This document shows positions 5,436 through 62,707 of a stretch of DNA of 64,000 nt, one piece after another. Numbering within the stretch: position 1 is the first letter of the stretch; each line of letters opens with the position of its first letter. The notes beneath the pieces are model-generated. The model did no database searches. It had not been told where the DNA came from and was given only the letters and a program-made list of their open reading frames with translations. The position numbers were made by a program, and so were the translations under genes. Source of the stretch: Candidatus Falkowbacteria bacterium (lineage in GTDB: Bacteria > Patescibacteriota > Patescibacteriia > CAIXNZ01); assembly GCA_016927685.1 (NCBI GenBank), contig JAFGMD010000021.1, positions 21,913 to 85,912 on the forward strand. The letters are read 5' to 3'.

Positions 5436-5897
5436 TTAAGCCGACAAAAGCTCAAGTTCATGATAATGGCAGATAGAAATTGTAGGGTGGTCTTCACCAA
5501 TTTTATCCAAAACTTCTTTAGTTTTGTCTAGCCAGCGAGCATCGCAAGGCATAAGATCAGTCTGATTGAAACAAACAAGTGCGTCCTCTTTTGTTAAGAA
5601 AAGAGCAACTATTTTTGATGTACCAGCCCTCCACCACATAGTATTGACTATTTCAAGACGGCGCTCTTCTCCGGTCTGGGAAGATAACATACTATGAGCT
5701 TCGGGGATATAAAATTGTAAATTCTTAGCAATTGCTAACATAGGACCACTAATTTTTTCACTAATCTCTATTTTTCCTTCTTTTTTCTGGGCGATCTTTT
5801 CTGCAAAAGGCTGACCACTTTCATTCTTGGATATTACCATGTAAAGCGAATTCTTTGTTACAGCATAGAATTTTTCCAAAATTTCTGACATAAACAC
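5436..5897 (-). CDS. hypothetical protein
   Basis: 153-aa ORF with an RBS-like aaaggaggtg upstream of the ATG. No domain recognised. Confidence 0.4.
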   Translation of the reverse strand: MFMSEILEKFYAVTKNSLYMVISKNESGQPFAEKIAQKKEGKIEISEKISGPMLAIAKNLQFYIPEAHSMLSSQTGEERRLEIVNTMWWRAGTSKIVALFLTKEDALVCFNQTDLMPCDARWLDKTKEVLDKIGEDHPTISICHYHELELLSA

Positions 5898-6021
5898 CTC
5901 CTTTTATATATTTCTTTTATCAGCTTGAGAATATTTTGTCAATATAATATTAATTCATTGACTTGAAGATTTTTTTGTGCTATTATATCATATATAAAAC
6001 GAATTTCACTTCGTTTTTTTA

Positions 6022-6038
6022 TTCCGGGGTAGCGCAGT
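6022..6038 (+). repeat. 17-nt direct repeat copying the 5' end of tRNA-Asn (pseudo-tRNA fragment)
   Basis: ttccggggtagcgcagt at 6022-6038 is identical to 6344-6360, the 5' acceptor/D-arm of the tRNA. It is followed by two small hairpins (ccgccAGAggcgg, cagccTTCGgctg) and a ttaagggc motif that recurs after the tRNA at about 6461. Confidence 0.6.
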
Positions 6039-6092
6039 TTCCGCCAGAGGCGGATCAGCCTTCGGCTGAGGCTGTCTTAAGGGCTTAAAATT

Positions 6093-6338
6093 ATGTATTA
6101 TGTTTACGTATTAAAAAGCTTAAAGAATGGCAAAAGATATGTTGGCTTTACCAGTAAACAATTGAATGCTAGATTTAAGGAACACAATGCTGGTTCTAAT
6201 AAATGGACACGAGAAAATAGACCTTTTATAAATATATATTCAGAAGAATATAAAACAAAAACCGAAGCAATGAAACGCGAAAAATTTCTAAAATCTGGGC
6301 AAGGAAGAAAAATTTTAGATAGTATTATCGATAAGTAA
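6093..6338 (+). CDS. GIY-YIG nuclease family protein (small URI-domain, COG2827-like)
   Basis: 81 aa; YYVYVL...GKRYVGFT...RFKEHN...REKFLK matches the GIY-YIG core (GIY, YIG, Arg, Glu). It lies between the tRNA 5' repeat copies. Confidence 0.8.
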   Translation: MYYVYVLKSLKNGKRYVGFTSKQLNARFKEHNAGSNKWTRENRPFINIYSEEYKTKTEAMKREKFLKSGQGRKILDSIIDK

Positions 6339-6344
6339 TAATTT

Positions 6345-6419
6345 TCCGGGGTAGCGCAGTGGTAGCGCAGTTGGCTGTTAACCAATTGGTCGTGGGTTCG
6401 AATCCCACCCCCGGAGCCA
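6345..6419 (+). tRNA. tRNA-Asn (anticodon GTT)
   Basis: Manual fold: acceptor TCCGGGG/CCCCGGA, D-arm GCGC-AGTGGTA-GCGC, anticodon stem GTTGG/CCAAT with loop CTGTTAA (GTT), T-arm GTGGG-TTCGAAT-CCCAC, discriminator G and an encoded CCA. Confidence 0.85.
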
Positions 6420-8006
6420 TTCTGCACGAACAGAGGCGAGAGCCTCTGTTTTTGCTTTGTTTAAGGGCAGTATCTTTGGTTCTAACCTTAGATATTCTTT
6501 TTCTAAGACTGAATAACTATTTTTTATTGGGAGAAACCAATTATTGGCGGAAATAGTGAGTTTCCCGTCTTTCATCAAAAAGTTCGAGCCTAAAGCCATT
6601 ACAATGCTTTTCTTGGCTTGTAAATCTCCCAATAAGAAGTTTTTGTAAGCATAAGTAGCAAAGTTAAAGGTATTTTCAGTCAATTCTAACCAACGCTCTG
6701 CTCTGGCTTCGGTCTCCCGTAATTTTTCTTTTAGCTGAATTATTTTTGATTGGAGTAAATTTTTTTCTTTGGTAAAAGCTTCATCATCAATCAGCTCCCT
6801 ATATCGCATTTTGGTAAGCTCATCAATTTCTTTTTGGGTTTTTAGCAAATCAATGCTTAAGCTTTCGTGAATTTTACTTCGGTCTTCAATTTCCTTATCA
6901 TTTGACTGATTTAATACTCCCAAAGCCCAATCTCTAAAATCTGGTAAAATTGTAATGCTTTTTAGTTCATCCAAGATTTGATTTTCTAATTCTTCCTCTC
7001 TGATAACTTTTTTTTGGGAGCAATTTACTCTTATTGTTTTTCTGGTGCAATGGTAGTAAGTATATTTTTTAATCACCCCCGTGCTTTTAATAAACTTCTT
7101 TTTAATTTCAGCCGTATAAAGACAACCGCATTCAGCACATCTGATAAGTCCAGTAAAAGCGAATTTATATTTTTGCGGTCTTGGCTTGCCCTTTTTGCCA
7201 AGTAAAATCTGCACTCGGTCAAATTCTTCCAATGTAATAATTGGTTTGTGATTGCCCTGATATTGTTTGCCAGCCCAATCAATAATGCCAGCATAGAAAA
7301 TATTGTTAAAAATTCTGTATATCCCGCTTTTAGATAATTTGTTATCGCCAATCCTTTTATATTTTTTAGTTCTAAAGCCCCATTCATTATTAGCTAATTC
7401 AAGAATTTTAGGCGGTGTATAATTGCCAGTCAGCATTAAATCCCACATTTTCCTAACCAAGTTAAAACGCTCTGGGTCTTCAGCGATTGTTTTATTTTCT
7501 TTATCGTTGACATAGCCAAGGGGAGCTAAATTGGGCAACCAGCCTTTTTCTAATTTACTTTCCAAACCTCTTTTAGTATTTTTCTTTAAATCAAGGATGT
7601 ATTGATTGGCAACGCCAGTTTCAACACTAAAAAGCAGAACATTGTCATCTGGGAGATATTGCCTATCTATTGTTTGAATTGATTTAAGCGTCCCTTGCTG
7701 TAAAAGCCAGCCTAATTTACCGCTATCAATCGGATTTCTTGAAAGGCGGTTTATTTGCCAGCATAAAATCCCATCTGCTTCGCCTTGCTCTATTTTTTGT
7801 ATCATTTCATCAAATAGGGGTCTGTTATAGGGTTTCTTGGCAGATTTGGCTTCAGTATAAATCTTTTTAATGCTTAAATTCGTTTCTTGAGCTAATTTTT
7901 TTAAGCGGTTGATTTGGTCATCAATTGACTGGACTTGGCGGTCTTCACTTTCAGATGATTTTCTGGCGTAGAGAAAATATTTGATTTTTGATTTATTTTC
8001 GGTCAT
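6378..8006 (-). CDS. large serine recombinase (phage-integrase type; resolvase catalytic domain + recombinase domain + zinc ribbon + coiled coil)
   Basis: N-terminal resolvase motif (YARKSSESEDRQVQSIDDQ with catalytic Ser, WQINRLSRN), a Cys cluster (CAECGCLY...YYHC) and a C-terminal coiled coil. The last 14 codons (WLRGWDSNPRPIG) are the reverse-strand reading of the tRNA T-arm and acceptor; the stop codon falls in the anticodon loop. Confidence 0.85.
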   Translation of the reverse strand: MTENKSKIKYFLYARKSSESEDRQVQSIDDQINRLKKLAQETNLSIKKIYTEAKSAKKPYNRPLFDEMIQKIEQGEADGILCWQINRLSRNPIDSGKLGWLLQQGTLKSIQTIDRQYLPDDNVLLFSVETGVANQYILDLKKNTKRGLESKLEKGWLPNLAPLGYVNDKENKTIAEDPERFNLVRKMWDLMLTGNYTPPKILELANNEWGFRTKKYKRIGDNKLSKSGIYRIFNNIFYAGIIDWAGKQYQGNHKPIITLEEFDRVQILLGKKGKPRPQKYKFAFTGLIRCAECGCLYTAEIKKKFIKSTGVIKKYTYYHCTRKTIRVNCSQKKVIREEELENQILDELKSITILPDFRDWALGVLNQSNDKEIEDRSKIHESLSIDLLKTQKEIDELTKMRYRELIDDEAFTKEKNLLQSKIIQLKEKLRETEARAERWLELTENTFNFATYAYKNFLLGDLQAKKSIVMALGSNFLMKDGKLTISANNWFLPIKNSYSVLEKEYLRLEPKILPLNKAKTEALASVRAEWLRGWDSNPRPIG

Positions 8007-8032
8007 ATAATTATAATTTAATAATTAAAATG

Positions 8033-8150
8033 GACGGTTCTGGTTAACCCAACACACTTGCCCGAAGGTAGTTTTGTCGGCAGAACCGCCCATTAAAAGC
8101 GACAAAAAATAATAAATCCTTCGAACATAGATTGTGTGTGGGTTAACACT
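8033..8150. promoter_or_regulatory. nested imperfect inverted repeats immediately upstream of the recombinase start (candidate att-like or operator site)
   Basis: gttaacccaacacac (8044-8058) pairs with gtgtgtgggttaac (8136-8149). gacggttctg (8033-8042) pairs with cagaaccgcc (8081-8090). cccgaagg pairs with ccttcgaa. Confidence 0.45.
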
Positions 8151-8194
8151 TGTATTATAGCCTATTTTAAAGATTAAGTAAAATTAAATTTCAT

Positions 8195-9094
8195 CTAATT
8201 TATTTTCTCTTTTATCACTTCGCTTGCCTTGGGATAACTTGCATACATTTTATCATTTTCTTCCTTGCCATAAGTCATTGCTATAAGTTGCTTTACTCTT
8301 ATTTTAAACATTGCTTTTTGTTCTTCAGTTATTTCATTATTTGTCTGGTTAGACTGATTAAAATTATTTTGTTGAGAAACTAGAAATTTATTATTATCAA
8401 GCATTGCTGGCAAAAAACCAAATCTAACTAACAACTTATCAAGTTCATTTAAATGATTAGACAGTTTAGCAAGGGATATTTGTAAAAATTCATAACTTAA
8501 AACTAATGACTTGCTGGGCATTAAATCGCCTGCATTGGCTTTTTTAATTTTCTTTTTTAAATTGCCGATACCTTCTTCCATTGATAAAACAATACTTTCT
8601 GATTTTTGATATAATTTCACCCTTGCCGAAAAAATATCAAAATCTTTTAATACTCTGCCTATTTTAACTTCATCTCTTAGTCGCAATGCTATACCTTGAA
8701 CTTCAAGTTCTTGATTTTCCTTGCTCAACTTCTTTTTAAAATCATTTATACTAACAACGCTTGGTATAAGTTCTTTGGGTATATCTGGAAATTCTCTAAG
8801 CATATCTTCTAAAAAAAATGGGGCTGGAACGCTTAAGGTTATCAATGCTTTTATGGCAAACTCACGAAAACCTTTTTTGGTATTCATCAAATATCCAAGC
8901 TTCCCGCCATACTTTTTATACTTTATAGCAGTTTGAATATATTCTTTACCGACTGTATGTTTCTTTGGTTTAACATTAACTTGCTTATTCTCTTGCGGAT
9001 TTTTCTCTATTTGTAATTTTAATTTTGCCATAGTTGCTTTTTTTAGGTATTTTCTCTTTATTTCTCTATAATAAAGAAAGTTAATTATTATCAC
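8195..9094 (-). CDS. hypothetical protein (element cargo)
   Basis: 299-aa ORF; the likely true start is the internal MAKLKLQ. No recognised domain. Confidence 0.4.
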   Translation of the reverse strand: MIIINFLYYREIKRKYLKKATMAKLKLQIEKNPQENKQVNVKPKKHTVGKEYIQTAIKYKKYGGKLGYLMNTKKGFREFAIKALITLSVPAPFFLEDMLREFPDIPKELIPSVVSINDFKKKLSKENQELEVQGIALRLRDEVKIGRVLKDFDIFSARVKLYQKSESIVLSMEEGIGNLKKKIKKANAGDLMPSKSLVLSYEFLQISLAKLSNHLNELDKLLVRFGFLPAMLDNNKFLVSQQNNFNQSNQTNNEITEEQKAMFKIRVKQLIAMTYGKEENDKMYASYPKASEVIKEKIN

Positions 9095-50164: not shown

Positions 50165-50755
50165 ATGACAGAGAGAAAAGAGGTTAAGGTAGCAATTTTT
50201 GTTGATGGCCCGAATCTTTACCATATGACTAAAAATCTTGGCTACAGGATTAATTTCAAGGAATTGATTTATACGCTTTGCAATGAAGAAGGCGTTTATC
50301 CTACTATTTTGGAATATTTCTATGATTTTAATCCTAAAAAACCATTGACTGATGGCTTTAATCAATTTCTTGGCATGCTAAAAAGTCTTAGTTTTAACAT
50401 TATACCAGTTGAATTAAAATCATACTACGGCAAAAATCAGTATAAAGATTTCAAAAGCAGAACAGATTCGGCCATAAATTTCAGAGTTGGAAAATATCTT
50501 GCTCAAAATATTTTTGACACCATTATTTTGATTTCTGGAGATAGTGATTTTGAATATTTAACTAAAGAATGCAAGAATGCCGGAAAGCAAGTTATTATTA
50601 TTGCCATCACTGAGCAGATAGCAAATAATTTATATAACTATGCGGATATGGTTCTTTGTCTTGATAAATTAAATCAAAAAGGAAGGAAGCTTCTTTTGCC
50701 TATTCCAGAAAGGCACGATGAAGCTGATGAATTTCCTCAAGAAAATACAAGATAA
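50165..50755 (+). CDS. NYN domain (LabA-like) protein
   Basis: VKVAIFVDGPNLYH...ILISGDSDFEYL...VIIIA, the acidic-residue pattern of NYN/LabA nucleases. A palindrome ctgctattatagcag sits in the divergent promoter region (50121-50137). Confidence 0.7.
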   Translation: MTERKEVKVAIFVDGPNLYHMTKNLGYRINFKELIYTLCNEEGVYPTILEYFYDFNPKKPLTDGFNQFLGMLKSLSFNIIPVELKSYYGKNQYKDFKSRTDSAINFRVGKYLAQNIFDTIILISGDSDFEYLTKECKNAGKQVIIIAITEQIANNLYNYADMVLCLDKLNQKGRKLLLPIPERHDEADEFPQENTR

Positions 50756-50801: not shown

Positions 50802-52712
50802 TTATATCAAACTTAGCGGCTTAACATCGATAATAACATCGTCGGGCAATTTTTTTAAAAAATCTATATTTGTATTATCTTTTAATATTTTTATAATCAT
50901 TTGCCAGCGAAAACGGCCACGCACCTGTTGTGAATAAATTAAATTAGGGGAACTAATAAAAACTTCATTATTTTTTGCCTGTAACTCTAATATTTTATAA
51001 ATTTCGTTTGCTTCCTTTTGTCCGGCATTAAATTTATAACTTTGGTAAATAAGTTTAATTATTTTTACAAATGGTGGCAAATTAACTGCTTTTCTTTCCT
51101 CTAATTCTTGTCCGTAAAAACTTTGAAAATCAAGCTTGATTAAATATTTAAAAATATAATTATTTATGGCAAGAGTTTGGATTATTATTTTTTTATTTTC
51201 TTTTCCTAAAAATAAAATCATTTTTGCTAGTAAATCGAAAGTTCTTTCTGTGCTTTTAAAATCAGGTATATACAGCGAAGTATCAGCGCTGATTACTCCA
51301 ATAAGATTTATCGTTTGCCAGTTTATAAAATCAAAAGCATACTGCGTGCCAATAATAATGTCATAATTGGACAAATCTTTTTCTGGTTGCGGAGTTTTTA
51401 TGTCAATCTTGGTAATTTTAGCTTTGGGAAAAAGTTTTTTTATTTCCTGCTCTACTTTCTCGGTTCCTGCGCCAGACAATTTAATATTTGGGCTTTTGCA
51501 TTCTGGGCAAAATAAGGTTAAATCTTCTTCAAAACCGCAATGACCGCAAGTCATTTTTTTATTGGCATAATAGGTAAGGGGCAATTTACAAGCAGGACAT
51601 TGTAAGGATTGTCCGCAATCCTGGCAAATTGCTAATGTGGCTATGCCTTTGCGATTTAAAAATAAAAATATTTTTTCTTTCTTTTTTAAATTATTTTCTA
51701 TATCCTTAATTAATTCCTCGCTAAAAATACTATAATTGCCCTTTTTAAATTCTTCTTTTTTATCAATAATTTTGATTTGGGGTAATTGGGTGGCCTTATT
51801 AATTTCAAAAAACTCCCAATCGCCATTTTTAGTTTTATAAATACTATCCAGTGATGGTGTTGTAGAAGTCAAAATCAACTTCGCCCCTAATAAATCTTTA
51901 ATTTTTGAAGCTACTGCTTTGGCATTATAACGGGGGTTTGGCTCTTCTTGCTTATGATTTTCATTATCTTCTTCATTAATTATTATCAGGTCCAGATTAT
52001 TAAATGGCGCAAAAATCGCGCTACGAGTACCAATAATAATTTTTGCTTGCCCTGATTTAATCTTATTGTATTCTTCAAAATATTTATTCATGGGCAAATC
52101 ATTTAAAAAAACAGAGGTTTGCTCTTTATAATCTCCCAAGTACTGGAAAATCTTTTTAATATTGATTAATTGCGGGCAAATAATGGCAACTTGCTTATTT
52201 TGCTTAATAACTTTTTCAACTGTGCCTAAATAAATTTTAATTTTTGTGTCAGCGTCAAAATATTGTAATAAAACTGGCTTGGTTAGATTATAAAAATCAT
52301 TAATATCAATTTTTTCTTTTGGCGCTGAAATAAATTGTAAATTTTTTAAAAATTTTTCTTCCGAACTCTTGACTCGTTTAGGTATATCGGGGATTATCAT
52401 TTTCAATAAAACCCCCATGGAAACAAAATAATATTCTGATAAATCTCTGATTAAATCCAATTGCCATTTAGCTAAAAAGGGTAGAGGATCGATAATTTTA
52501 CTAATTGGTTTTAATTCAAATTCATTCTGGCTTTTTTCACCCGTCAAATTTAAAATAACCCCTTTAACAAATTGTTTTCTAAAGGGGATTTCTACTAATT
52601 GTCCAACTTGCGCTTGCTCTTGCATATTCGAAGGTATCTCGTAATCAAAAAAATGCATGTCACGCTTTAAGCGCAAAGCGGGAATAACTTGGGCAATCCT
52701 ATTTTTCCTCAT
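50802..52712 (-). CDS. priA: primosomal protein N' (PriA helicase)
   Basis: Walker A and DEED-like (IINEEDNE) motifs, and a Cys-rich zinc-binding region (CQDCGQSLQCPACKLPLTYY...CGHCG...CPEC). The likely start is the internal Met (MRKNRIAQVIP); the track ORF extends to 52784. Confidence 0.85.
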   Translation of the reverse strand: MRKNRIAQVIPALRLKRDMHFFDYEIPSNMQEQAQVGQLVEIPFRKQFVKGVILNLTGEKSQNEFELKPISKIIDPLPFLAKWQLDLIRDLSEYYFVSMGVLLKMIIPDIPKRVKSSEEKFLKNLQFISAPKEKIDINDFYNLTKPVLLQYFDADTKIKIYLGTVEKVIKQNKQVAIICPQLINIKKIFQYLGDYKEQTSVFLNDLPMNKYFEEYNKIKSGQAKIIIGTRSAIFAPFNNLDLIIINEEDNENHKQEEPNPRYNAKAVASKIKDLLGAKLILTSTTPSLDSIYKTKNGDWEFFEINKATQLPQIKIIDKKEEFKKGNYSIFSEELIKDIENNLKKKEKIFLFLNRKGIATLAICQDCGQSLQCPACKLPLTYYANKKMTCGHCGFEEDLTLFCPECKSPNIKLSGAGTEKVEQEIKKLFPKAKITKIDIKTPQPEKDLSNYDIIIGTQYAFDFINWQTINLIGVISADTSLYIPDFKSTERTFDLLAKMILFLGKENKKIIIQTLAINNYIFKYLIKLDFQSFYGQELEERKAVNLPPFVKIIKLIYQSYKFNAGQKEANEIYKILELQAKNNEVFISSPNLIYSQQVRGRFRWQMIIKILKDNTNIDFLKKLPDDVIIDVKPLSLI

Positions 52713-53229
52713 GTCTGCTAACCGTGAATTTATAAACCACAAATTTATCGGCCTTAGGATCAATGCCTGCTTTTTGGCAGGCAATATTAATCTGCTTTTC
52801 TACGGTATTTACTCCTTCCAAATTGGGGAGGAGTAAGCCGCTGGCAAAACCATCTTCCGTTTTAACCATAACGCCATGAACTTTTGGATTCAGCTTCTTG
52901 ATATCTTTTTCTGCAACTAGCTCAGGAGTGCTGAGAACATCAATTGAAACAGTTACGTCCCTCAACTCTTTAGCAGATACCGGCAAAAAACGGGGATCTT
53001 GCGTGGCAGCTGAAATTGTACTATTAATAATTTCTTCTGCCACATTTTCCTGCGTTGGCATATAGGTGCCAATGCAACCACGCAATTCGCCCTTGTTTTT
53101 GAAACAGACAAAAACACCTGCCTGCGTATTTAGCATTTCAGCAGGCAGATCTTTTGACGGCTCAATGGTCTTGCCATGCAAAAGATATTCTTTGATTGCC
53201 TCTTTGGCTAAATTTATATAAGCGTCCAT
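52699..53229 (-). CDS. AMMECR1 domain protein (AmmeMemoRadiSam system protein A-like)
   Basis: GVFVCFKNKGELRGCIGTYMP...DPRFLPV matches the AMMECR1 signature (CxG ... DPRF). Confidence 0.8.
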   Translation of the reverse strand: MDAYINLAKEAIKEYLLHGKTIEPSKDLPAEMLNTQAGVFVCFKNKGELRGCIGTYMPTQENVAEEIINSTISAATQDPRFLPVSAKELRDVTVSIDVLSTPELVAEKDIKKLNPKVHGVMVKTEDGFASGLLLPNLEGVNTVEKQINIACQKAGIDPKADKFVVYKFTVSRHEEK

Positions 53230-53301
53230 ATGGTATATAGTAGCATAAATAAAATAAAATAAAAAAGCCGCGGGATTTCTCTTACGGCTTTTTAACTATA
53301 T

Positions 53302-54090
53302 TTATAGAAATTTAAAATTGGCCACTAAATAACCCACTCCAAAGGGGCCTTCGTAAGAATAAACTTCTGGCTCATATTTATATTCGTCTAAAATGCCTAA
53401 TAAAATTATAAATGAACGCAGACCGCACTCTGCTGCCTTATCAATTAATTTAGGATCCATTTTTATGATGCCGCGTACATCTTTGCGCTGTAATAATTGT
53501 ATGAATTTTTTATCAAATTCTGCTCCCTTAGGCGAATAGCGGGCTGGCGCGTCTTCTGTCAATGCGTGAGACATATCACCAGAAGCAATCACAGCAATTC
53601 TTTTTTCGCTTTTAGCAATTTCTTTTTTTAATAACTGACCAAATTCAAAATGGCTCTGATAATCTAAAAAACTGTAGCAAATTGGCAGAATTTCAATTCC
53701 TTTAAGGTGTTTGGTTAAATAAAATAAGGGAACTCCGATTCCGTGATCAAGTTGTTCTATGCTGGTTAAAACTATGGGCAATGTGCCTTCAATCCTTTCT
53801 TTTATTTTCATGGCTAAAAGGGAAGAGCTGCGGAATTCCATTTTAGTTGTAAAATCTCCAAATTGCTCGAAATTAGCATTATATTTGGTATTTAAATTCA
53901 AACAAAAGGCATCGGGAATTATTTCGCCATGAGGCGATATAACTATAATAATATCTGGCTTACTGGCATATAAATCAGTTTCCAATTTTTTCATGGCCTC
54001 TGCTGTATTTTTAATTTTATCTAAATTGTCCTTTCCAATTGTAGGAATTAAAATTGGCGGATGAGGACAAATAGCTGAGAAGACTAGCAT
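53302..54090 (-). CDS. MEMO1-family protein (AmmeMemoRadiSam system protein B-like; LigB-type fold)
   Basis: AICPHPPILIP (compare Memo IAPHAGY), IVISPHGEI (compare ILGPSHH), and a size of about 260 aa. It lies directly upstream of the AMMECR1 gene on the same strand. Confidence 0.6.
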   Translation of the reverse strand: MLVFSAICPHPPILIPTIGKDNLDKIKNTAEAMKKLETDLYASKPDIIIVISPHGEIIPDAFCLNLNTKYNANFEQFGDFTTKMEFRSSSLLAMKIKERIEGTLPIVLTSIEQLDHGIGVPLFYLTKHLKGIEILPICYSFLDYQSHFEFGQLLKKEIAKSEKRIAVIASGDMSHALTEDAPARYSPKGAEFDKKFIQLLQRKDVRGIIKMDPKLIDKAAECGLRSFIILLGILDEYKYEPEVYSYEGPFGVGYLVANFKFL

Positions 54091-54178
54091 AATTTTAAAA
54101 TATGAAATACGAAATATGAAATACAGAAAAAATTAATCATCCAATCACTTATTTCCAATTTCTTATTTCTTATATCAG

Positions 54179-55579
54179 TTAATTATTTGTCGCAATTGTT
54201 GCGGTTGGAATTAATAAGTCCAAATTTTCACCCTGCGGATGTAAGCTCAAGACTTTATCAGTCACGTCAAATATATCTGTCCAGCTATAACCTAAGGATA
54301 TAAAAGTATTTTCATTAGCAACCCAGCGACGCTGACCATTAGAAATTACATATACCTTGGGATCGCTAGGACTTTTTATTAAAATACCGTCACGAATTTT
54401 TAAGCCGTTAGCTGCTGTAACATATTTATCAAGTTCTTCGGTAGTGACTTTAATAGTGCTGTATTTTTTATTGTAATTAATATTTAAAACATCTTTTGAC
54501 CAAATAGGATATTTTATGCCATCTTCAACATAAAATACACCCCCCGTTTTTGAATCCTGAAGCAGAGCGCCCTGTGGATATAAGCTAGTAAGTGTTATTT
54601 TTCTACCCTCCAAATAATAGCCAAGCTCTTCATCAGTAACATCTATGATCTCATCTGGATTATAACCTATAGCGCGAAAAACTTCATCTGATTCAATTTC
54701 CTTTTTTTCATTGCCGACAATTAAATATATTTTATTGGCAGGGGAGCGAAGTAATGAAAAATTAGCATACTTAATGGGATAGCCCTCTTCATATCTTAAT
54801 AAATCATTTTTAGAAATTTCAATAATTTTGGCATTGGCATAACGGCTGGTTAGGGCTAAATTAGACCAGAATAATCTTCGTTTGCCATTGGCTATTAAAT
54901 ATATTTTAGAATCGCCTGTTTGTTTAACGATTGTACCATCAGGGAAAATTTTAGCAAACCATCGATTCCAAATATTCCAAAAATTAAAATTACCATGCAG
55001 ATGTGGCGTATAATTATATAAATTTGCTGTTGATTGATTATAAGGAACTATTGTCTGATTATCAACTATACTGGATTTGCCTGGTAGAAAATTAAAGTCA
55101 GAAGCATGATCATAATAATATCTTATTCTCCAAGTACCGCGGTCAACTTGCGTGCCAAAACCCTTAAACATGGCAACTTGGGGGTCATCAATAGAACAAG
55201 AATCGCAAACTGCATAACCCATAGCCCAATCAATATTTTTTTGCGATGGAGTCGGATTTGTAATCAAGCTCTGTTCCTTTTGAAGTGTTGCTAAAATCCA
55301 TTTGGGATTTATTTTATATGTCTGGGCAGCATTAAAAATTATTTCAGCCGCTAATTTTTGAACACCATAATTATCAGGAGTTATAAGGCTTTTTAAAACT
55401 CCATTTTGGTTATTTAAAAATTCTGCAATAGCAGATAAATTCATGGACTGAAAATCAGTCAAATCTCCATCAGAAATAATATCATTTGGATCAAATTCAA
55501 AAGCCAAAAGCTGGCCAAATGGCGCTAAAATAAAACTTATAACAACAATAAAAATAATAATTTTATGATAAATTTTCAT
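54179..55579 (-). CDS. secreted putative peptidoglycan hydrolase (glucosaminidase-like N-terminal region) with 3-4 C-terminal repeats of about 45 aa
   Basis: A signal peptide. INPKWILATLQKEQSLI resembles the glucosaminidase motif. The repeats are KIYLIANGKRRLFWS..., KIYLIVGNEKKEIES..., KVYVISNGQRRWVAN.... Confidence 0.4.
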   Translation of the reverse strand: MKIYHKIIIFIVVISFILAPFGQLLAFEFDPNDIISDGDLTDFQSMNLSAIAEFLNNQNGVLKSLITPDNYGVQKLAAEIIFNAAQTYKINPKWILATLQKEQSLITNPTPSQKNIDWAMGYAVCDSCSIDDPQVAMFKGFGTQVDRGTWRIRYYYDHASDFNFLPGKSSIVDNQTIVPYNQSTANLYNYTPHLHGNFNFWNIWNRWFAKIFPDGTIVKQTGDSKIYLIANGKRRLFWSNLALTSRYANAKIIEISKNDLLRYEEGYPIKYANFSLLRSPANKIYLIVGNEKKEIESDEVFRAIGYNPDEIIDVTDEELGYYLEGRKITLTSLYPQGALLQDSKTGGVFYVEDGIKYPIWSKDVLNINYNKKYSTIKVTTEELDKYVTAANGLKIRDGILIKSPSDPKVYVISNGQRRWVANENTFISLGYSWTDIFDVTDKVLSLHPQGENLDLLIPTATIATNN

Positions 55580-55712
55580 ATATTATATTTTATCATAAAT
55601 TCATGCTTCTTTCAATAAATAAAAAGATCGCCTGCATAATTACGGACCTAACCCTCTAACCCCGGATTCAGCGAAAGCTGATACCGGGGTCTTTTTCTAT
55701 CCAAAAAATATT

Positions 55713-55742
55713 TTGACATATTCTTTTACTATTGCTAATATA
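55713..55742 (+). promoter_or_regulatory. sigma-70-like promoter (TTGACA -N18- TAATAT) driving the candidate ncRNA
   Basis: ttgaca at 55713-55718 and taatat at 55737-55742, with no ORF downstream. Confidence 0.45.
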
Positions 55743-55749
55743 TTTTTAC

Positions 55750-56113
55750 GAGGGAATATGTCTGTGAAAAATAGCTCGGTTTGCTAGCGACAAAGAGCGA
55801 AAAGGCCATCCAATTGAAATACGCATTAACACTATGTGGCAGAAATGTCAGGTGGATGCGTTCCTCATGAAAAAATTGTGGGGTGGTGCCATACCCTGCG
55901 TACTGCACTGAGCGAGGTGCGCGGGAGCAAACCTGCCCATGATGCCGAAACCCCCATGTTTCTCGTTTTGCGGGACCGCATGCCAACGGGAACCTAGGGC
56001 GGCTGTCGCCACGTGCCTAGTTATGGGACCGGAGAAAAAAGCTCTGTTTTTACAGACTACCTCAAGTCGTGCCCCGGCGAGTTATGTACAAACTTGCCGG
56101 GGCCTTTTTTATT
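55750..56113 (+). ncRNA. candidate structured ncRNA of about 360 nt (unclassified), GC-rich, bounded by a promoter and a strong intrinsic terminator
   Basis: No ORF longer than 25 codons on the plus strand. The only track ORF (55735..55986 minus) has an implausible composition. The terminator is ccccggcgag-TTATGTACAAA-cttgccgggg + ccttttttatt (56071-56113). No tmRNA, RNase P or SRP motifs were found. Confidence 0.3.
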
Positions 56114-56202
56114 GACAAAAAGAGTTATATTTGTTAAGCTGCCAATAATAACAGTGAGCTGACCTGGCATATAGGATGCTATGGGAACGGCTCGCCCCTC
56201 CA

Positions 56203-56245
56203 AGCCCCGCTTTCACTGATCATGATTGCGGGGCATTTTTTATTT
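56203..56245 (+). terminator. second plus-strand intrinsic terminator, ending a possible ~100-nt transcript that starts after the ttgaca at 56112
   Basis: ccccgc-TTTCACTGATCATGATT-gcgggg + cattttttattt. Confidence 0.4.
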
Positions 56246-56290
56246 AAAAATTAAAAAAGAAACGGATTTACCGCTTCTTTTTTGTTTTAT

Positions 56291-58912
56291 TTATTTAAAA
56301 ACTACTTTATCTTTTATAACATCCACTCTAACCTTTTGCCCTTCTTTTATCTTGCCTTCAATAATTTGCAAGGCTAAATCATCAAGAATTTGATTTTGAA
56401 TCACGCGCTTGAGCGGGCGAGCGCCAAATTGGGGATCAAAACCCTTATTAGCCAAATATTCTTTAAGCGCTTCTGTAAAATCAACTTTAATTTTTTTATC
56501 CAATAATCTTTTTCTGACAATTTCCAACTGCAATTCAATAATTTTTTCGATTTCTTTTTTTGCCAGAGGATGAAAAATAATTATTTCATCCAAACGATTA
56601 ATAAATTCCGGCTTGAAATGCGACTTTAAAGCTTCATTAACTCGTTCTTTCATTTTCTCCTCATCAACTTTTTCATTTGTTCTGACTGACTTATCTTCAA
56701 AACCAAGAGTAACTTCTTTTAAAAGCTGATTGCCTAAATTAGAAGTCATAATTATAATAGCATTTTTAAAATTTACTATTCGGCCCTTGGCATCAGTCAA
56801 ACGGCCATCATCAAGTAACTGCAACAGAATATTAAAAACCTCTGGATGAGCTTTTTCAATTTCATCAAATAAAACCACAGAATATGGACGTCTACGAATC
56901 TGTTCAGTTAATTGTCCGCCTTCATCATAGCCAATATAACCGGGAGGGGAGCCAATAAACTTGGAAATAGAATGTTTCTCCATATATTCTGACATATCCA
57001 CGCGAATCATGGCATCTTCATCACTAAACATAAATTCTGCCAAGGCCTTGGCTAATTCAGTTTTGCCTACGCCGGTTGGGCCCAAGAAGATAAATGAGCC
57101 AATTGGCTTATTTTCCTCGCCAACGCCTGCGCGTGAGCGTCTAATAGCGTTTGCCACGGCTGAAATGGCCTCTTCCTGGCCAATTACGCGCTTTTTTAAC
57201 TCATCTTCAGCGTGAGCAAGCTTAGCCATTTCTGATTGCAGCATTTTGGAAACAGGAATGCCTGTCCAGCGAGAAACAACTGCCGCTATATCTTCCTCAG
57301 TTACTTCTTCTTTTAATATTTTATTTTCTTTTTGAATGAGGGCTAATTTTTTTTCTAAAGACTTGATGTCTTTTTCCAAAGCCGGAATCGTGCCATAGCG
57401 AATTTCTGCAACTTTTTGCAATTCTGATTTTCTTTCCAAAATATCTGCTTCTTGTTTTAGAGAATCAATTTTCTTTTTAGCCTCGCGGATTTTTGTAATA
57501 ATTTCCTTTTCATTTTTCCAGTGTAATTCCAATTGGTTTGATTTTTCTTTCAAATCATTCAGTTCCTTATTTAGATTTTTCAAATTTTCTTTGGCCTCTT
57601 TTTCTGATTCATTTTTTAGCGCGGCTTTTTCGATTTCCAACTGTTTAATTTTTCTTTTCATTTTGTCCAAATCTTCGGGCATAGAATCAATTTCCATGCG
57701 CAAGGCCGATGTTGCTTCGTCAATCAAATCAACTGCCTTATCAGGCAAAAAACGATCGGTGATATAGCGCTGTGAAAATTCAGCTGCTGCAGTAATTGCT
57801 GAATCAGTAATTCTCACACCGTGATGAACTTCATATTTTTCTTTAATGCCACGCAAAATGGCAATCGTATCTTCAATTGACGGCTCTAAAACCATAACCG
57901 GTTGAAATCTGCGTTCTAGGGCCGGATCTTTTTCAATATGTTTTTGATATTCTTTCAGGGTTGTTGCGCCAATGGCATGCAATTTACCGCGAGCCAAAGC
58001 AGGCTTTAACATATTAGAAGCATCCATCGAGCCTTCGATAGCGCCGGCGCCCACTACAGTATGCAATTCATCTATAAATAAAATAATCTGGCCATTGGAA
58101 TTTTCTACTTCTTTTAAAACAGCTTTTAATCTATCTTCAAATTCACCACGAAATTTTGTACCTGCTATCAAAGATCCCAAATCCAAAGCAATCACTTCTT
58201 TATTTTTTAAAGTTTCCGGCACATCACCGGCTACAATTCTTTGTGCCAGGCCTTCGGCAATAGCAGTTTTGCCAACACCTGCTTCGCCGATTAAAACCGG
58301 GTTATTTTTTGTCCTGCGAGAAAGTACTTGCATAACACGTCTAATTTCAGAATCACGGCCAATAACGGGGTCTAATTTTTCCTGTCTGGCCATCTCAGTT
58401 AAATTTTGCGCGTATTTTTCTAAAACCTGAAATTTTGATTCTGGCTCGGGATCAGTTATTCTGGTTGAACCGCGTAATTGCGCTAAGAGCTTTAAAACCT
58501 CGTCATATTTAATTTCAAAACTTTCCAAAAGCGTTTTAACTTTGGATTTAGTATTGAGCATGGAGAGAAATAAATGCTCTGTAGAAATATATTCATCCTT
58601 GAGATCTTTAGCTTCTTTTTCACTTCCAGCTAAAATGCGCGCCAAATCTTCAGTTAAAAACATCTGGGTTAAATTAACTTCAACCTTGCTTTTAGGCATT
58701 GATTCAATGGCACGCGAAATTTCTTTTTTTAAATTTGCCGCTTCTACTTCCAGCTTTTTTATAATAGTCAAAACCAAGCTGTCTTCTTGAAGTAATAGAG
58801 CAGCGAGTAAATGCAGAGCATCAACTTGCTGATTATGATTGTCAACAGCTATTTCTTGCGCGTGGCGCAAAGCCTCCTGCGATTTTGTAGTAAATTTGTT
58901 TATATTAAACAT
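56291..58912 (-). CDS. clpB: ATP-dependent chaperone ClpB
   Basis: Two AAA+ modules ([15 protein letters not shown]; [15 protein letters not shown]), a long middle coiled-coil domain, and 873 aa. Confidence 0.9.
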
Positions 58913-59068
58913 AGTATTAAGATTGTAAAATAATTAGCACTCTCACTTTACGAGTGCTAATACTAGTATAAAAAAACAAATGCATATTGTCAAGTAATTG
59001 AGTTGACAAAATTTAATATAGTGTTAAGTTTAATTTGTACCTTAAAATCAAATAAAAAGGAGGTTGTT

Positions 59069-60148
59069 ATGGAGTACGGATTTCGCGGTGTTAAAATTTT
59101 TGCATTGGAAGGGTCTGATCTCCTGGCTAATAAGGTTTGCCAGGAGCTAAACAACAAACTGCCTGATTCAATGAAGCCAGATGATGGTCTTAAGCTGATA
59201 AAGGTTGTGCTTGATGATTTTGACAACGAAAATGTCCAGGTGCAGATTGAAAAAGTTCGGGGCTACTTCACGGTCGTTATTCACACCCAATGCCCGCCAG
59301 TAAATACTCGGCTGATGGAATTATTCGCCTTGCTGGACGCTATTTACAATTCTAATCCGGCTGATTTGCTTCTGGCCTTTCCTTACATGCCTTATGCGCG
59401 TTCAGACCGCAAGGACCAGCCCAGGATTTCTGTCATGAGCAAGGTCCTGGCAGAAACATTCAATAATGTGCTGGGCGTCAGACGAGTTTTGTTGCTTGAC
59501 CCACATGACTCTCATGTTAAGCATTATTTCAAGCCTTCGGCTGATGAAATCTCTTCAATTTATATGTATGCTGATTTTCTGCTCTATTGGATTGAAGAAA
59601 ACTTGGGCGGCAAAAAAGACGATGTCCTTATTGCTTTTTCAGACGGCGGAGCAGCCAAGCGCTTTCACAAATTGCCAAAAATTACTGGCTTACGTCACGA
59701 CTACATTGACAAGATAAGACTTGACAATAAGGGAACTATTAAAATTGAAAGAGACATTGATTGTCAGGGAAAAACCTGCTTTATGGTTGACGATGAACTT
59801 TGCTCAGGCGGAACAGCCATTGAAGATGCCAAAGCCTTGAACAAAAACCGAGCAGCTAAAATTATTATGCTTGCTCCTCATGCGCCGTTGTCCAAAAAAC
59901 GCATGGAGTCCAGGGATCTGATTGCCCGTTTGAATGATTCGCCAATTGATCATTTTTTGTTCACTGACACGATACCGAGTGATGACAAAATTCAGGGAGA
60001 AAAAAAATTTCACATCTTATCAGTTGCTGGTCTTTTAGCTGAAGCCATTGCCCAAACCATTGCCAATGATTCAGTTACTAAGCTCCATGAGCCTGACAAT
60101 GTCCAACTCTACCGTCCAGATTACTCCAAACTAATACTGCCTCTTTAA
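59069..60148 (+). CDS. prs: ribose-phosphate pyrophosphokinase (PRPP synthetase)
   Basis: The PRPP-binding and flexible-loop motifs are FPYMPYARSDRK and FMVDDELCSGGT. The start was moved to ATG 59069 (RBS aaaggagg); the track ORF begins at 59003. Confidence 0.8.
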   Translation: MEYGFRGVKIFALEGSDLLANKVCQELNNKLPDSMKPDDGLKLIKVVLDDFDNENVQVQIEKVRGYFTVVIHTQCPPVNTRLMELFALLDAIYNSNPADLLLAFPYMPYARSDRKDQPRISVMSKVLAETFNNVLGVRRVLLLDPHDSHVKHYFKPSADEISSIYMYADFLLYWIEENLGGKKDDVLIAFSDGGAAKRFHKLPKITGLRHDYIDKIRLDNKGTIKIERDIDCQGKTCFMVDDELCSGGTAIEDAKALNKNRAAKIIMLAPHAPLSKKRMESRDLIARLNDSPIDHFLFTDTIPSDDKIQGEKKFHILSVAGLLAEAIAQTIANDSVTKLHEPDNVQLYRPDYSKLILPL

Positions 60149-60199
60149 TTAAAACAAGCCCTTCTTATAAAAGAAGGGCTTTTTTATTTTCAAAAGTAT

Positions 60200-61222
60200 T
60201 TATTTTAGTACCAAGTCTATTTTTTCACTGCATTTTGGGCATTTACCATCTCTATCAAAGCGTTTTATATCATAACCTTTACGCTCAATTACTAATTCGT
60301 TACAATTTGGGCAATAAGTATTCTCCAATTTTTCGCCTAAAACATTACCGCCATAGACATATTTCAAGCCAGCTTCTTTACCTAATTGCACCGCAGTATA
60401 GATTCGCTCCTCCTCTGTGGGGTCAGTATCTTGTAACTTATATTGTGGATAAAAACGAGAGAGATGCCAAGGTACGCATTTGCCCAATTCATTTTTTATA
60501 AACATAGCAATTTGTAAAAGTTCGTCATCGGAATCATTAAATCCTGGAATAACCAAGGTCGTAATTTCCAGCCAAATCTTTTTTTTCTTTAAAACTTTTA
60601 AATTATCCAAAACGGGTTGAAGTTTACAACCGCAAACTTTTAAATAGGTTTCATTTTTAAAAAATTTTAAATCAACATTAATGGCATCCAGATAGGGAAG
60701 TATCTTTGGCCAAGCTTCTTTAGACGTATAACCATTGGAAACCCAAACATTTCTTAATCCTGCTTTTCTAGCCAGCTTCATGCAGTCAATGGCAAACTCG
60801 GCAAAAATTGTTGGCTCAGTATAAGTATAGGCAATTGACTGGCAACCAGATGCTTTTGCCCGCTCAATAACTTGTTCTGGGGTGGTATTATGACCAGGCA
60901 CAACATTTTCTTTAAATTGTTCCTCGATAGGGTATTGGGAAATATCAGCATTTTGGCAATGCATACATCGCAAATTACAGCCCACTGTGGCAATTGAATA
61001 AGTCAAACTTCCGGGCAGAAAGTGGAAAAGCGGTTTTTTCTCAATGGGATCATTATCATTTTCAGAAATCAGTTTACCATAAACCAATGAATGCAATTCG
61101 CCATTTATGTTTTTTCTGACAGCGCAAACACCGACTTTGCCTTCTGAAATTAAGCAGTAGTGATTGCAAAGCTGGCATTGGATTTTATTATCTTTTTTTG
61201 TCCAAAATTGAGCGAGTTTCAT
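60200..61222 (-). CDS. AmmeMemoRadiSam system radical SAM enzyme
   Basis: MKLAQFWTKKDNKIQCQLCNHYCLISEGKVGVCAVRKNINGELHSLVYGKLISENDNDPIEKKPLFHFLPGS...ATVGCNLRCMHCQN closely follows the family N-terminal pattern as I remember it, with CxxxCxxC (CNLRCMHC). Confidence 0.8.
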   Translation of the reverse strand: MKLAQFWTKKDNKIQCQLCNHYCLISEGKVGVCAVRKNINGELHSLVYGKLISENDNDPIEKKPLFHFLPGSLTYSIATVGCNLRCMHCQNADISQYPIEEQFKENVVPGHNTTPEQVIERAKASGCQSIAYTYTEPTIFAEFAIDCMKLARKAGLRNVWVSNGYTSKEAWPKILPYLDAINVDLKFFKNETYLKVCGCKLQPVLDNLKVLKKKKIWLEITTLVIPGFNDSDDELLQIAMFIKNELGKCVPWHLSRFYPQYKLQDTDPTEEERIYTAVQLGKEAGLKYVYGGNVLGEKLENTYCPNCNELVIERKGYDIKRFDRDGKCPKCSEKIDLVLK

Positions 61223-61321
61223 GCCTTTATTATAACATAAATTGTTTGACTTTTGTGGTAATTTTTGTTAATCTTCTGAATTAGAAAGATGAACCTTAAA
61301 AATTTAAAAAAGGAGGAAATA

Positions 61322-62707
61322 ATGAAGCTATTTGAAATTCTGAAAAATATCAAACATTATATCAGAGTCAAAGAGCCACAACATCGCCTAAGAAAAGGTC
61401 AGCACAACATTTTCATGTCTTTATATGAATTTTTGAAAAAGGGCATGACAATGGGTTATCTTATGCTGCCTAGCGGTGTCGGCAAAACCAATATTGCTAT
61501 TGAATTAGCAATAGCCGGTGACTTTAAAAAGGTATTATTTTTAGTGCCAACTGTCACGCTCGTTGATCAAACCAAGGAGCGATTCAGGAAATTTTCAAGT
61601 TTCACGGTTGATGTATTTACTGGGGCTCGCAAAAATATGTCCGAACAAATTACTGTTGCCACTTATCAATCGATACAAAGGCGGCATTTGCTGCCAGAGA
61701 AATTTGACCTTGTCATCTTTGATGAGGTGCATGAAGCTTTAAGTCCAGGCCGCCAAAACATCAGAAAACATTTTGGGCCAGAGACTATTCAAATCGGTTT
61801 AACTGCCTCTGATACTTATAACGAAACAAAGCAAGTTTCAAGTTATTTTCCGCTTATTGCTAAAATGACAATTGAAGAAGCGATTAAGCTTGGTATGCTT
61901 TGTCATGTTCAAAATTGGCTTGCGCAAACAAATATTGATATTTCGAAAATAACCAGACGTAGAGGTGACTATGATGTAAGGGAGCAGAAGCGCTATATTG
62001 ATGTATCTCGACGCAATAAGGCAGCGCTTGATATTTATAAGCGCTTCTTAAACGGTCAGACATGTTTAATAACATGTATAAATGTTAATCATGCTATAAA
62101 AGTTGCTCGGATATTTCAACGCTCTGGCATACCGAGTAAGGCAGTCTGGGGATCAACCCAAAAACATCTATTATCAAGAGCGGATTTAAGACAGCGATTG
62201 AGCGATTTTAAAACGGGTAAAATCAAAGTATTGACCACAGTCGATCTCGTTGATAAGGGGTTTGATAACACTCTTATCACTGCTTTGATTAATTTGCGTA
62301 TAACCAGTTCTGTTGTTAAGGCAACCCAGCGCGGAGGACGAGTTCTGCGACTTTTTAGTGAGGATGACAGAATACAGCCAATCGCCCAAAAAATGCTAAA
62401 AAAATTTCATGTCAAACTTGCTACTGTCGTTGATTTTCTTGATGAGTGTAAAAATCACACTTTCAGGCCAGTTCTTTTCAGTGATATTTTGGCACAAACC
62501 TACCGTTTACCAACGGAAATAGAACGTTCTATCAGTAATGGAACGCGAAAGGGAGAAGTTGATCTGTGGCCATCAGGTGGCCCAATCAAGATTAAATTAA
62601 TCACAAACGTAACTCAAATAGCCAAAATTACATCTAAATTAACCACTTATGTGAATTTACCAGTATCCGATGAGAGGGAAATTTTTTTCCTCCCAGTAAA
62701 ACGTTAA
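61322..62707 (+). CDS. SF2 helicase (DEAD/DEAH-box, ResIII-like N-terminal domain + helicase C domain)
   Basis: Motif I LPSGVGKT, motif II FDEVHE, motif III TAS, motif VI QRGGRVLR. The likely start is ATG 61322 (RBS aggagg), and an intrinsic terminator follows at 62717-62747. Confidence 0.65.
   Translation: MKLFEILKNIKHYIRVKEPQHRLRKGQHNIFMSLYEFLKKGMTMGYLMLPSGVGKTNIAIELAIAGDFKKVLFLVPTVTLVDQTKERFRKFSSFTVDVFTGARKNMSEQITVATYQSIQRRHLLPEKFDLVIFDEVHEALSPGRQNIRKHFGPETIQIGLTASDTYNETKQVSSYFPLIAKMTIEEAIKLGMLCHVQNWLAQTNIDISKITRRRGDYDVREQKRYIDVSRRNKAALDIYKRFLNGQTCLITCINVNHAIKVARIFQRSGIPSKAVWGSTQKHLLSRADLRQRLSDFKTGKIKVLTTVDLVDKGFDNTLITALINLRITSSVVKATQRGGRVLRLFSEDDRIQPIAQKMLKKFHVKLATVVDFLDECKNHTFRPVLFSDILAQTYRLPTEIERSISNGTRKGEVDLWPSGGPIKIKLITNVTQIAKITSKLTTYVNLPVSDEREIFFLPVKR

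Follow-up and report, generated by a model that had tools for sequence, protein, structure and literature searches.

A LigB-type AmmeMemoRadiSam trio in Candidatus Falkowbacteria, probably split by stepwise gene insertion

The 64-kb window analyzed here, by which we mean the whole stretch of DNA, comes from Candidatus Falkowbacteria (Patescibacteria, or candidate phyla radiation, CPR). It encodes the three proteins of the AmmeMemoRadiSam system: an AMMECR1-domain protein (A), a second component (B), and a radical S-adenosylmethionine (SAM) enzyme (rSAM). A preliminary description of this DNA had placed such a trio in the region, and three intact minus-strand open reading frames (ORFs) for A, B, and rSAM were found where it had put them (Table 1). 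Their N-termini agree with those of their homologues. The three genes lie within 8.5 kb on one strand and are non-contiguous; four features intervene, and the rSAM stop (60200) is 6.1 kb from the B start (54090). Our reading, which we consider very likely, is that the window holds an intact copy of the known trio with a LigB-type protein as its B component, in an operon that was split by stepwise insertions and now appears to be expressed from at least two units. The system, its association with a partner of the ring-opening-dioxygenase type, and the annotation of these proteins are already public, and the split is an ordinary change of gene order.

The preliminary description had proposed checking the trio with the hidden Markov models (HMMs) TIGR04335, TIGR04336, and TIGR04337. 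All three families score above cut-off, TIGR04335 and TIGR04337 comfortably and TIGR04336 marginally, and the NCBI names for these exact proteins (AmmeMemoRadiSam system protein A, protein B, and radical SAM enzyme) agree. Protein A belongs to the component A family, with 134.4 bits against TIGR04335 (cut-off 99, E 2.6e-39), and scores 151.6 bits against Pfam AMMECR1 (cut-off 25). The residues of its motif L49 R50 G51 C52 I53 G54 T55 (LRGCIGT) are invariant or nearly so among 50 homologues, with Cys52 and the LRGCIGT string counted as invariant in 50 of 50, and the motif is kept in the window. The rSAM protein matches TIGR04337 over its full length with 347.9 bits (cut-off 220, E 4.9e-104) and is a member of that family. 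Its CX3CX2C motif (Cys82/86/89) and an N-terminal set of four cysteines (Cys16/19/23/33) are invariant in 47 of 47 sequences. An enzyme of the pyruvate formate-lyase (PFL) activase type had been named as the alternative; the scores against the PFL-activase models are 72.8 bits for TIGR02493, 60.6 bits for TIGR02494, and 74.1 bits for TIGR04041, against cut-offs of 231.75, 174.35, and 250.2 bits, and the protein is not of the PflA type. The E-values of the HMM matches of A, rSAM, and B (the latter to Pfam LigB) are all far beyond chance.

The B component is the one for which the earlier label has to be changed. The gene had been called MEMO1-like, and what stands of that claim is that it encodes the cognate B component: the protein scores 36.5 bits against TIGR04336 (cut-off 26), a marginal membership with an alignment that covers residues 114-239 only. 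Its closest affinities lie elsewhere. Pfam LigB (PF02900) matches over the full length with 147.4 bits (gathering score 26.3, E 5.6e-43), whereas the match to Pfam Memo (PF01875) reaches 40.6 bits (cut-off 27) and is partial, covering residues 113-243, and the MEMO1 family NF001987 gives 32.1 bits against a cut-off of 295. By score, the best NCBIfam match is HpaD_Fe, with 42 bits against a cut-off of 316; the remaining dioxygenase equivalog models give 27-35 bits against cut-offs of 290-467, and B falls into none of these named equivalogs. A search of PDB sequences with a profile built from 15 B homologues found TK2203 (5hee), HpaD, DODA, and aminophenol dioxygenases and no Memo chain at E < 0.01. 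The AlphaFold (AF2) model of B has a mean predicted local distance difference test score (pLDDT) of 87.8. When this model was compared with known structures by Foldseek, template modeling (TM) scores of 0.72-0.84 (E 1e-19 to 1e-12) were obtained for TK2203, aminophenol dioxygenase, HpaD, DesB, DODA, and LigAB, the best match being TK2203 5hee at 0.84, while MEMO1 appeared at rank 32 or lower with 0.58-0.68. B thus has the LigB domain and fold and lies outside the MEMO1 family proper. The sequence and the model together indicate a LigB-type class III extradiol-dioxygenase homologue, for which the label "Memo" should read "LigB-type B component".

The putative metal site of B fits this assignment. 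In the alignment with HpaD 8iq8, residues H54, H175, and E221 fall on its corresponding His, His, and Glu, in the 2-His-1-carboxylate arrangement, and H10, judging from its position, is probably the first iron ligand. Each of H10, H54, D115, D172, H175, E221, and C222 is conserved in 80-84 of 84 family sequences, and all are present in the window. The protein therefore keeps the LigB-type His/His/Glu set and adds a cysteine, Cys222, adjacent to Glu221; Cys222, the ECG motif, and the C-terminal YEGPFGVGY motif are invariant and specific to the family. We take the His, His, and Cys positions of B to match the metal site of MEMO1, and the Cys beside the Glu to be the metal-site Cys of that protein.

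We regard the LigB-type B as the cognate partner of A and rSAM, because its orthologues sit in tight three-gene operons of other phyla. The B orthologues in 33 such operons are 36-65% identical to the window B (36-47% in the tblastn mapping described below), and six of these operon-embedded proteins gave the same HMM profile as the window B does (LigB 147-224, Memo 20-41, and TIGR04336 22-44 bits). The preliminary description had treated a reassignment of B to the extradiol dioxygenases as fatal to the system. LigB does score far above Memo, yet the system stands, since it is this form of B that the tight operons elsewhere contain, and a partner of the ring-opening-dioxygenase type had been described in 2007 (PMC2034487). 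The family is also well represented in the lineage: B has 6153 homologues, and every named match among the top 120 is from CPR, with Falkowbacteria, Buchananbacteria, Uhrbacteria, and Parcubacteria as the top matches. For a family this abundant in Patescibacteria, a member in a reduced genome is nothing unusual.

The gene order of the locus was followed in 80 loci, obtained by scanning the B alignment against GTDB species representatives, with the window proteins mapped by tblastn, and in the further loci L086, L087, and L089. Tight rSAM-B-A operons occur at 18 loci, in Chloroflexota/Dehalococcoidia, a metagenome-assembled genome labeled as cyanobacterial, and basal CPR, and tight B-A-rSAM operons at 15 loci, in Bacillota and Armatimonadota; the intergenic gaps in these operons are mostly 5-110 nt. 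One basal CPR locus (L041) has a tight rSAM-B-A-priA-def string, and A, priA, and def keep this order in CPR relatives. In L027 and L035 the order is rSAM-X466-B-A-priA, where X466 is a protein of 466 residues discussed below, and in L001, L003, L004, L006, L007, L009, L033, and L086 it is rSAM-[variable slot]-clpB-X466-B-A(-priA-def). The window has the L001/L086-type order with a reversed prs in the slot between rSAM and clpB. The content of that slot varies: L001 has an 89-aa ORF there, L003 a reversed HAMP-guanylate cyclase gene, and L004 an 88-aa ORF, and in L086, whose B is 85% identical, it is empty; prs occupies it in the window lineage only and is missing there in all relatives examined. 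In a neighbor-joining (NJ) tree of B, the tight arrangements are basal and all X466-bearing loci form one derived CPR clade.

These arrangements form a series. The ancestral CPR arrangement would have been a tight rSAM-B-A-priA-def string, which unrelated genes entered stepwise at the rSAM/B junction, X466 and clpB early and prs last, in reverse orientation. From the gene orders, X466 and clpB are old insertions common to a CPR clade and prs is a very recent one confined to this lineage, since it is missing even in L086. The preliminary description had asked whether clpB-prs inserted into an ancestral operon. Insertion into rSAM-B-A is borne out, but clpB and prs did not enter together, and only prs is recent.

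The split trio is intact in sequence. With conservation assessed in 50 sequences for A, 84 for B, and 47 for rSAM, the window proteins retain all residues that at least 95% of the homologues from different phyla share, and identities to the L001 orthologues are 88% for rSAM, 82% for A, and 83% for B. All three genes co-occur in one genome, with no second copy of A (AMMECR1), B (Memo), or rSAM elsewhere within the 64-kb window. We examined co-retention at 27 X466-clade loci that had sufficient flanking sequence, scoring a gene as absent when it did not lie within 10 kb of B. Both A and rSAM are near B in 10 of the 27 loci and neither is in 14; rSAM occurs alone in three and A alone in none (Fisher's exact p = 3e-5, ignoring shared ancestry). 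Loci with both genes and loci with neither are interspersed on the B tree. Since A and rSAM are retained together with B, clpB, and X466 lying between them, we infer continued functional coupling, and the split system is probably functional.

Many Patescibacteria have B with neither A nor rSAM within 10 kb (L010-L016, L019-L025, L028-L032, L036, L037, L039, and L042), and B is then often directly followed by priA or def. Five B proteins carry substitutions at putative metal ligands, and four of them come from loci without A and rSAM, the changes being C222A in L032, E221A in L037, E221Q in L039, and H175Q with E221A in L042. It could be imagined that in a large Patescibacteria clade B has become uncoupled from its partners, with A and rSAM as an obligate pair and B persisting alone beside X466, its metal site mostly intact, in about half of the sampled genomes; we hold this to be rather unlikely. 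If A and rSAM were truly absent from the B-only genomes, B would have a stand-alone function, and the series of presence and absence across CPR would amount to a natural genetic dissection of a conserved system that has gone without an assigned function for about 20 years.

Consensus scans point to a division of the locus into separate transcription units. The rSAM gene and prs converge on a hairpin at 60156-60181 with an 11-bp stem, five G-C pairs, and T-runs on both strands, which was scored as a terminator-like site on both. The clpB gene has a promoter match of its own (TTGACA-17-TATACT, 58993-58965, 11/12) and a terminator-like 13-bp hairpin with a T-run just past its stop (56283-56253). 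Neither the 88 nt between X466 and B nor the 72 nt between B and A contains a terminator-like site, and the promoter-like site 5' of X466 (Table 1) is probably where an X466-B-A-priA unit starts. Together with rSAM and clpB, each by itself, this makes three likely units. As the trio apparently lies on separate units, co-transcription is evidently not needed; the split shows only this much, which is unsurprising.

The genes between rSAM and B are those expected from the preliminary description (a glucosaminidase-like gene, a gap resembling a non-coding RNA, clpB, and prs), with the correction that prs lies on the opposite strand. Both clpB and prs are standard housekeeping genes, and the G+C content of the prs region (0.39) is slightly above that of neighboring DNA. 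In L006, a distant prs-like gene (29% identity) is found elsewhere, at 7448-8317 on the minus strand between clpB and X466. In L003, clpB (5470-8094) is called as three consecutive ORFs of 587, 75, and 227 aa, which suggests frameshifts, from assembly errors or in a pseudogene. X466 has no match in Pfam or NCBIfam. It has 1161 homologues, and among the 120 listed all named ones are from CPR, nearly all of them called hypothetical; L001 and L003-L031 are among the loci that have one, and a QKE motif at residues 100-102 is invariant. X466 has an N-terminal hydrophobic anchor, presumably in the membrane, and its AF2 model (pLDDT 85.8) recalls known proteins: the N-terminal domain weakly resembles the GH73 N-acetylglucosaminidase autolysins AtlE, LytB, and Acp, and the C-terminal repeats look EccB-like. 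The label glucosaminidase-like is consistent with the model, and X466 would be an extracytoplasmic wall enzyme.

Three other accounts of the locus were weighed against the reading of an intact trio split by insertions. One takes B at face value as a genuine aromatic ring-cleaving extradiol dioxygenase that is unrelated to A and rSAM and stands beside AMMECR1 by coincidence. The LigB score, the rank of HpaD_Fe among the NCBIfam models, the 2-His-1-Glu set, and the fact that the sequences and folds closest to B are those of extradiol dioxygenases all speak for it, yet B lies far below every dioxygenase equivalog cut-off, has the ECG and YEGPFGVGY motifs of its own family, and has orthologues with a fixed place beside A and rSAM in the three-gene operons of at least four phyla. 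Moreover, genes of aromatic catabolism do not recur near the B loci, and many of the hosts belong to anaerobic lineages. Because B orthologues and an oxygen-sensitive enzyme class co-occur in anaerobic lineages such as Dehalococcoides and Thermoanaerobacterium, O2-dependent cleavage of aromatic rings by B is itself unlikely, and a chance neighborhood of this kind seems to us extremely improbable. A different possibility is that the trio is genuine and is being dismantled in this lineage. About half of the related CPR loci sampled (14 of 27) have B without A or rSAM within 10 kb, these loci supply four of the five ligand-substituted B proteins, and the window rSAM is apparently isolated in transcription. 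The window trio, on the other hand, keeps all of its family-invariant residues, none of its members is diverging faster than the others when compared with L001, and rSAM is kept in 10 of the 10 loci that keep A; dismantling here is accordingly improbable.

The third account would see in rSAM-clpB-X466-B-A a functional unit, into which ClpB, X466, or both, with or without the gap RNA, were recruited to give an extended system specific to CPR. What makes it attractive is the constancy of the block, the order of which is the same across relatives with B 58-85% identical. Within CPR, X466 is the most constant neighbor of B: it lies immediately 5' of B at 34 loci and adjoins it more constantly than A does. 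No locus outside CPR has X466 in that position. However, the locus lacks X466 and clpB in every non-CPR phylum and in basal CPR, rSAM-X466-B occurs without clpB in L017, L018, L027, and L035, and clpB comes with a strong promoter match and a terminator-like hairpin of its own. X466 is modeled as membrane-anchored and extracytoplasmic, while radical SAM chemistry is cytoplasmic. The conserved neighbors in CPR also include priA, def, fmt, a WecG-type transferase, and gltX, and since the housekeeping genes priA, def, and fmt among them are just as conserved, the constancy of the block is best read as plain synteny. No recurrent fourth gene was found beside the trio outside CPR when one was looked for. 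X466 was considered as a component of the system and rejected, given its wall-hydrolase-like extracytoplasmic model and its restriction to CPR. The intervening genes are probably not part of the system, and an extended unit is very unlikely.

Several points weigh against the reading of a cognate, still coupled trio split by stepwise insertion. B passes TIGR04336 by a small margin and over part of its length, and the biochemical function of the system is entirely inferred. The NJ tree is crude and does not firmly settle the order in which X466 and clpB were inserted, and the co-retention test takes no account of shared ancestry and counts absence within 10 kb rather than genome-wide. For promoters and terminators the evidence consists of consensus matches, and in AT-rich DNA such as this, promoter-like sites are frequent (72 were found where 45 would be expected).

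The gap between clpB and X466 may encode one or more structured RNAs. Its plus strand shows a match to the promoter consensus at 55713-55741 and, at 56071-56103, a strong terminator hairpin; the GC-rich main candidate at 55750-56108 gave a folding z of -4.19. Reading by eye suggested a possible second unit (TTGACA at ~56113, with a hairpin and T-run at ~56196-56240) and a third hairpin at 55661-55690. Rfam returned nothing relevant at the gathering threshold over the whole window or at E <= 1 over 55500-56400; the gap gave no match to a tRNA or transfer-messenger RNA (tmRNA), and ARAGORN reported no tmRNA. Relatives have a GC-rich gap of 480-1400 nt in the same place, the sequence of which is not conserved even at 85% protein identity. 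Aligned with MAFFT, the gaps are little conserved, and when all loci were searched with the gap RNA by nhmmer and blastn, nothing beyond a 68-nt piece (~56190-56253), shared with L086 and L087, was retrieved.

The coordinates are collected in Table 1. The G+C content of the window is 28-43%. The priA start is probably Met25 of the listed ORF; with this start, the last 14 nt of the gene for A lie within priA, and an identical 14-nt overlap is called in L001. The prs start is probably 59069, which gives a protein of 359 aa, the same call that is made on the identical Logan contig L089. Between priA and def, on the opposite strand, lies a gene with an NYN domain (50165-50755, plus strand, Pfam NYN 62.6 bits), of which there is one copy in L087, two in L003, and none in L001 or L004. 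This patchy distribution marks it as one more variable insertion, here within the conserved string priA-def-fmt. On the other side, a gene for a ResIII/DEAD-type helicase (472 aa, 61289-62707, plus strand) is divergent from the rSAM gene; its position is kept in L001 (83% identity) and L089 and not in more distant relatives.

Table 1. Features of the AmmeMemoRadiSam locus in the 64-kb window (columns: feature, coordinates, strand, basis)
priA	50802..52712	-	TIGR00595 356 bits
AmmeMemoRadiSam system protein A (AMMECR1 domain, 176 aa)	52699..53229	-	TIGR04335, Pfam AMMECR1; NCBI MBN1325928.1
Protein B of the system (262 aa; LigB-type with class III extradiol-dioxygenase fold, not a canonical Memo)	53302..54090	-	Pfam LigB, predicted fold; NCBI MBN1325929.1
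X466, putative membrane-anchored CPR-specific protein, wall-hydrolase-like (466 aa)	54179..55579	-	structure model, homologue distribution
Promoter-like site 5' of X466	55587..55615	-	TTGAAA-17-TAAAAT, upstream TG, 10/12 match
Non-coding gap, 711 nt, candidate plus-strand structured RNA(s)	55580..56290	+	promoter-like site, terminator hairpin, folding z
clpB (873 aa)	56291..58912	-	TIGR03346 1284 bits
prs (ribose-phosphate diphosphokinase)	59003..60148	+	TIGR01251 191.7 bits, cut-off 113
Bidirectional terminator-like hairpin between convergent rSAM and prs	60156..60181	both strands	consensus scan
AmmeMemoRadiSam system radical SAM enzyme (340 aa)	60200..61222	-	TIGR04337; NCBI MBN1325933.1

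The value of the locus is modest and lies in the series to which it belongs, a record of how genes entered an operon step by step in streamlined CPR genomes. Links to human disease exist for AMMECR1 as well as for Memo-type proteins, and the finding that A and rSAM are retained or lost jointly while B can persist alone may guide biochemistry on proteins of these two types. Literature searches found no experimental study of the prokaryotic system in any lineage, and among them those for AMMECR1 with LigB, AMMECR1 with CPR, and AMMECR1 since 2019 returned no functional or CPR-specific study. Burroughs and colleagues reportedly proposed in 2019 that the target is a nucleotide base or an isoprenoid. 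In the mechanism that published comparative genomics suggests, the three proteins would be cytoplasmic enzymes acting on one substrate. C-H activation would depend on a 5'-deoxyadenosyl radical made by rSAM, and B would carry out a redox or ring step at its His/His/Glu(+Cys) metal center. An intermediate would be carried or transferred by the invariant LRGCIG Cys of AMMECR1. In 2007, Balaji and Aravind (PMC2034487) described AMMECR1 in association with a radical SAM enzyme and a ring-opening dioxygenase, and they proposed a role for the conserved AMMECR1 Cys and a possible modification of RNA bases. The target would be an RNA base or another nucleotide (PMC2034487).

The closest known systems each have features in common with the window and features in which they differ from it. 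The core of rSAM is related to the activases of glycyl-radical enzymes (PflA, YjjW, NrdG), with which it has the CX3CX2C motif in common (YjjW 74 and PFLA 73 bits). It remains far under their cut-offs (232-250 bits) while passing that of TIGR04337, and its family carries the extra invariant N-terminal four-Cys motif. Human Memo (MEMO1; PDB 3bcz, 7kq8, 7l5c) has a superfamily fold in common with B (Foldseek probability 1.0, E ~2e-9), but the B model is closer to the LigB clade, and B keeps the LigB-type Glu (E221). The best matches of B in sequence and fold are the class III extradiol dioxygenases (LigAB 1bou, HpaD 8iq8, aminophenol dioxygenase 3vsh, DODA 8in2) and TK2203 (5hee). B differs from these in being only 14-22% identical to them and below all equivalog cut-offs, in having AMMECR1 and a radical SAM enzyme rather than aromatic catabolism genes as genomic partners, and in its invariant Cys222 and YEGPFGVGY motif; several of its hosts are in anaerobic lineages. 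In the 2007 account of the neighborhood (PMC2034487), the genes are clustered or fused, whereas the cluster of the window is interrupted and apparently divided into separate transcription units. With the AmmeMemoRadiSam system as defined by TIGR04335, TIGR04336, and TIGR04337, the window agrees in having all three families, each in a single copy and above the curated cut-off. It departs from that system in that rSAM is parted from B-A by X466, the RNA-like gap, clpB, and the reversed prs, and in that B fits TIGR04336 marginally and partially because it is a LigB-type variant.

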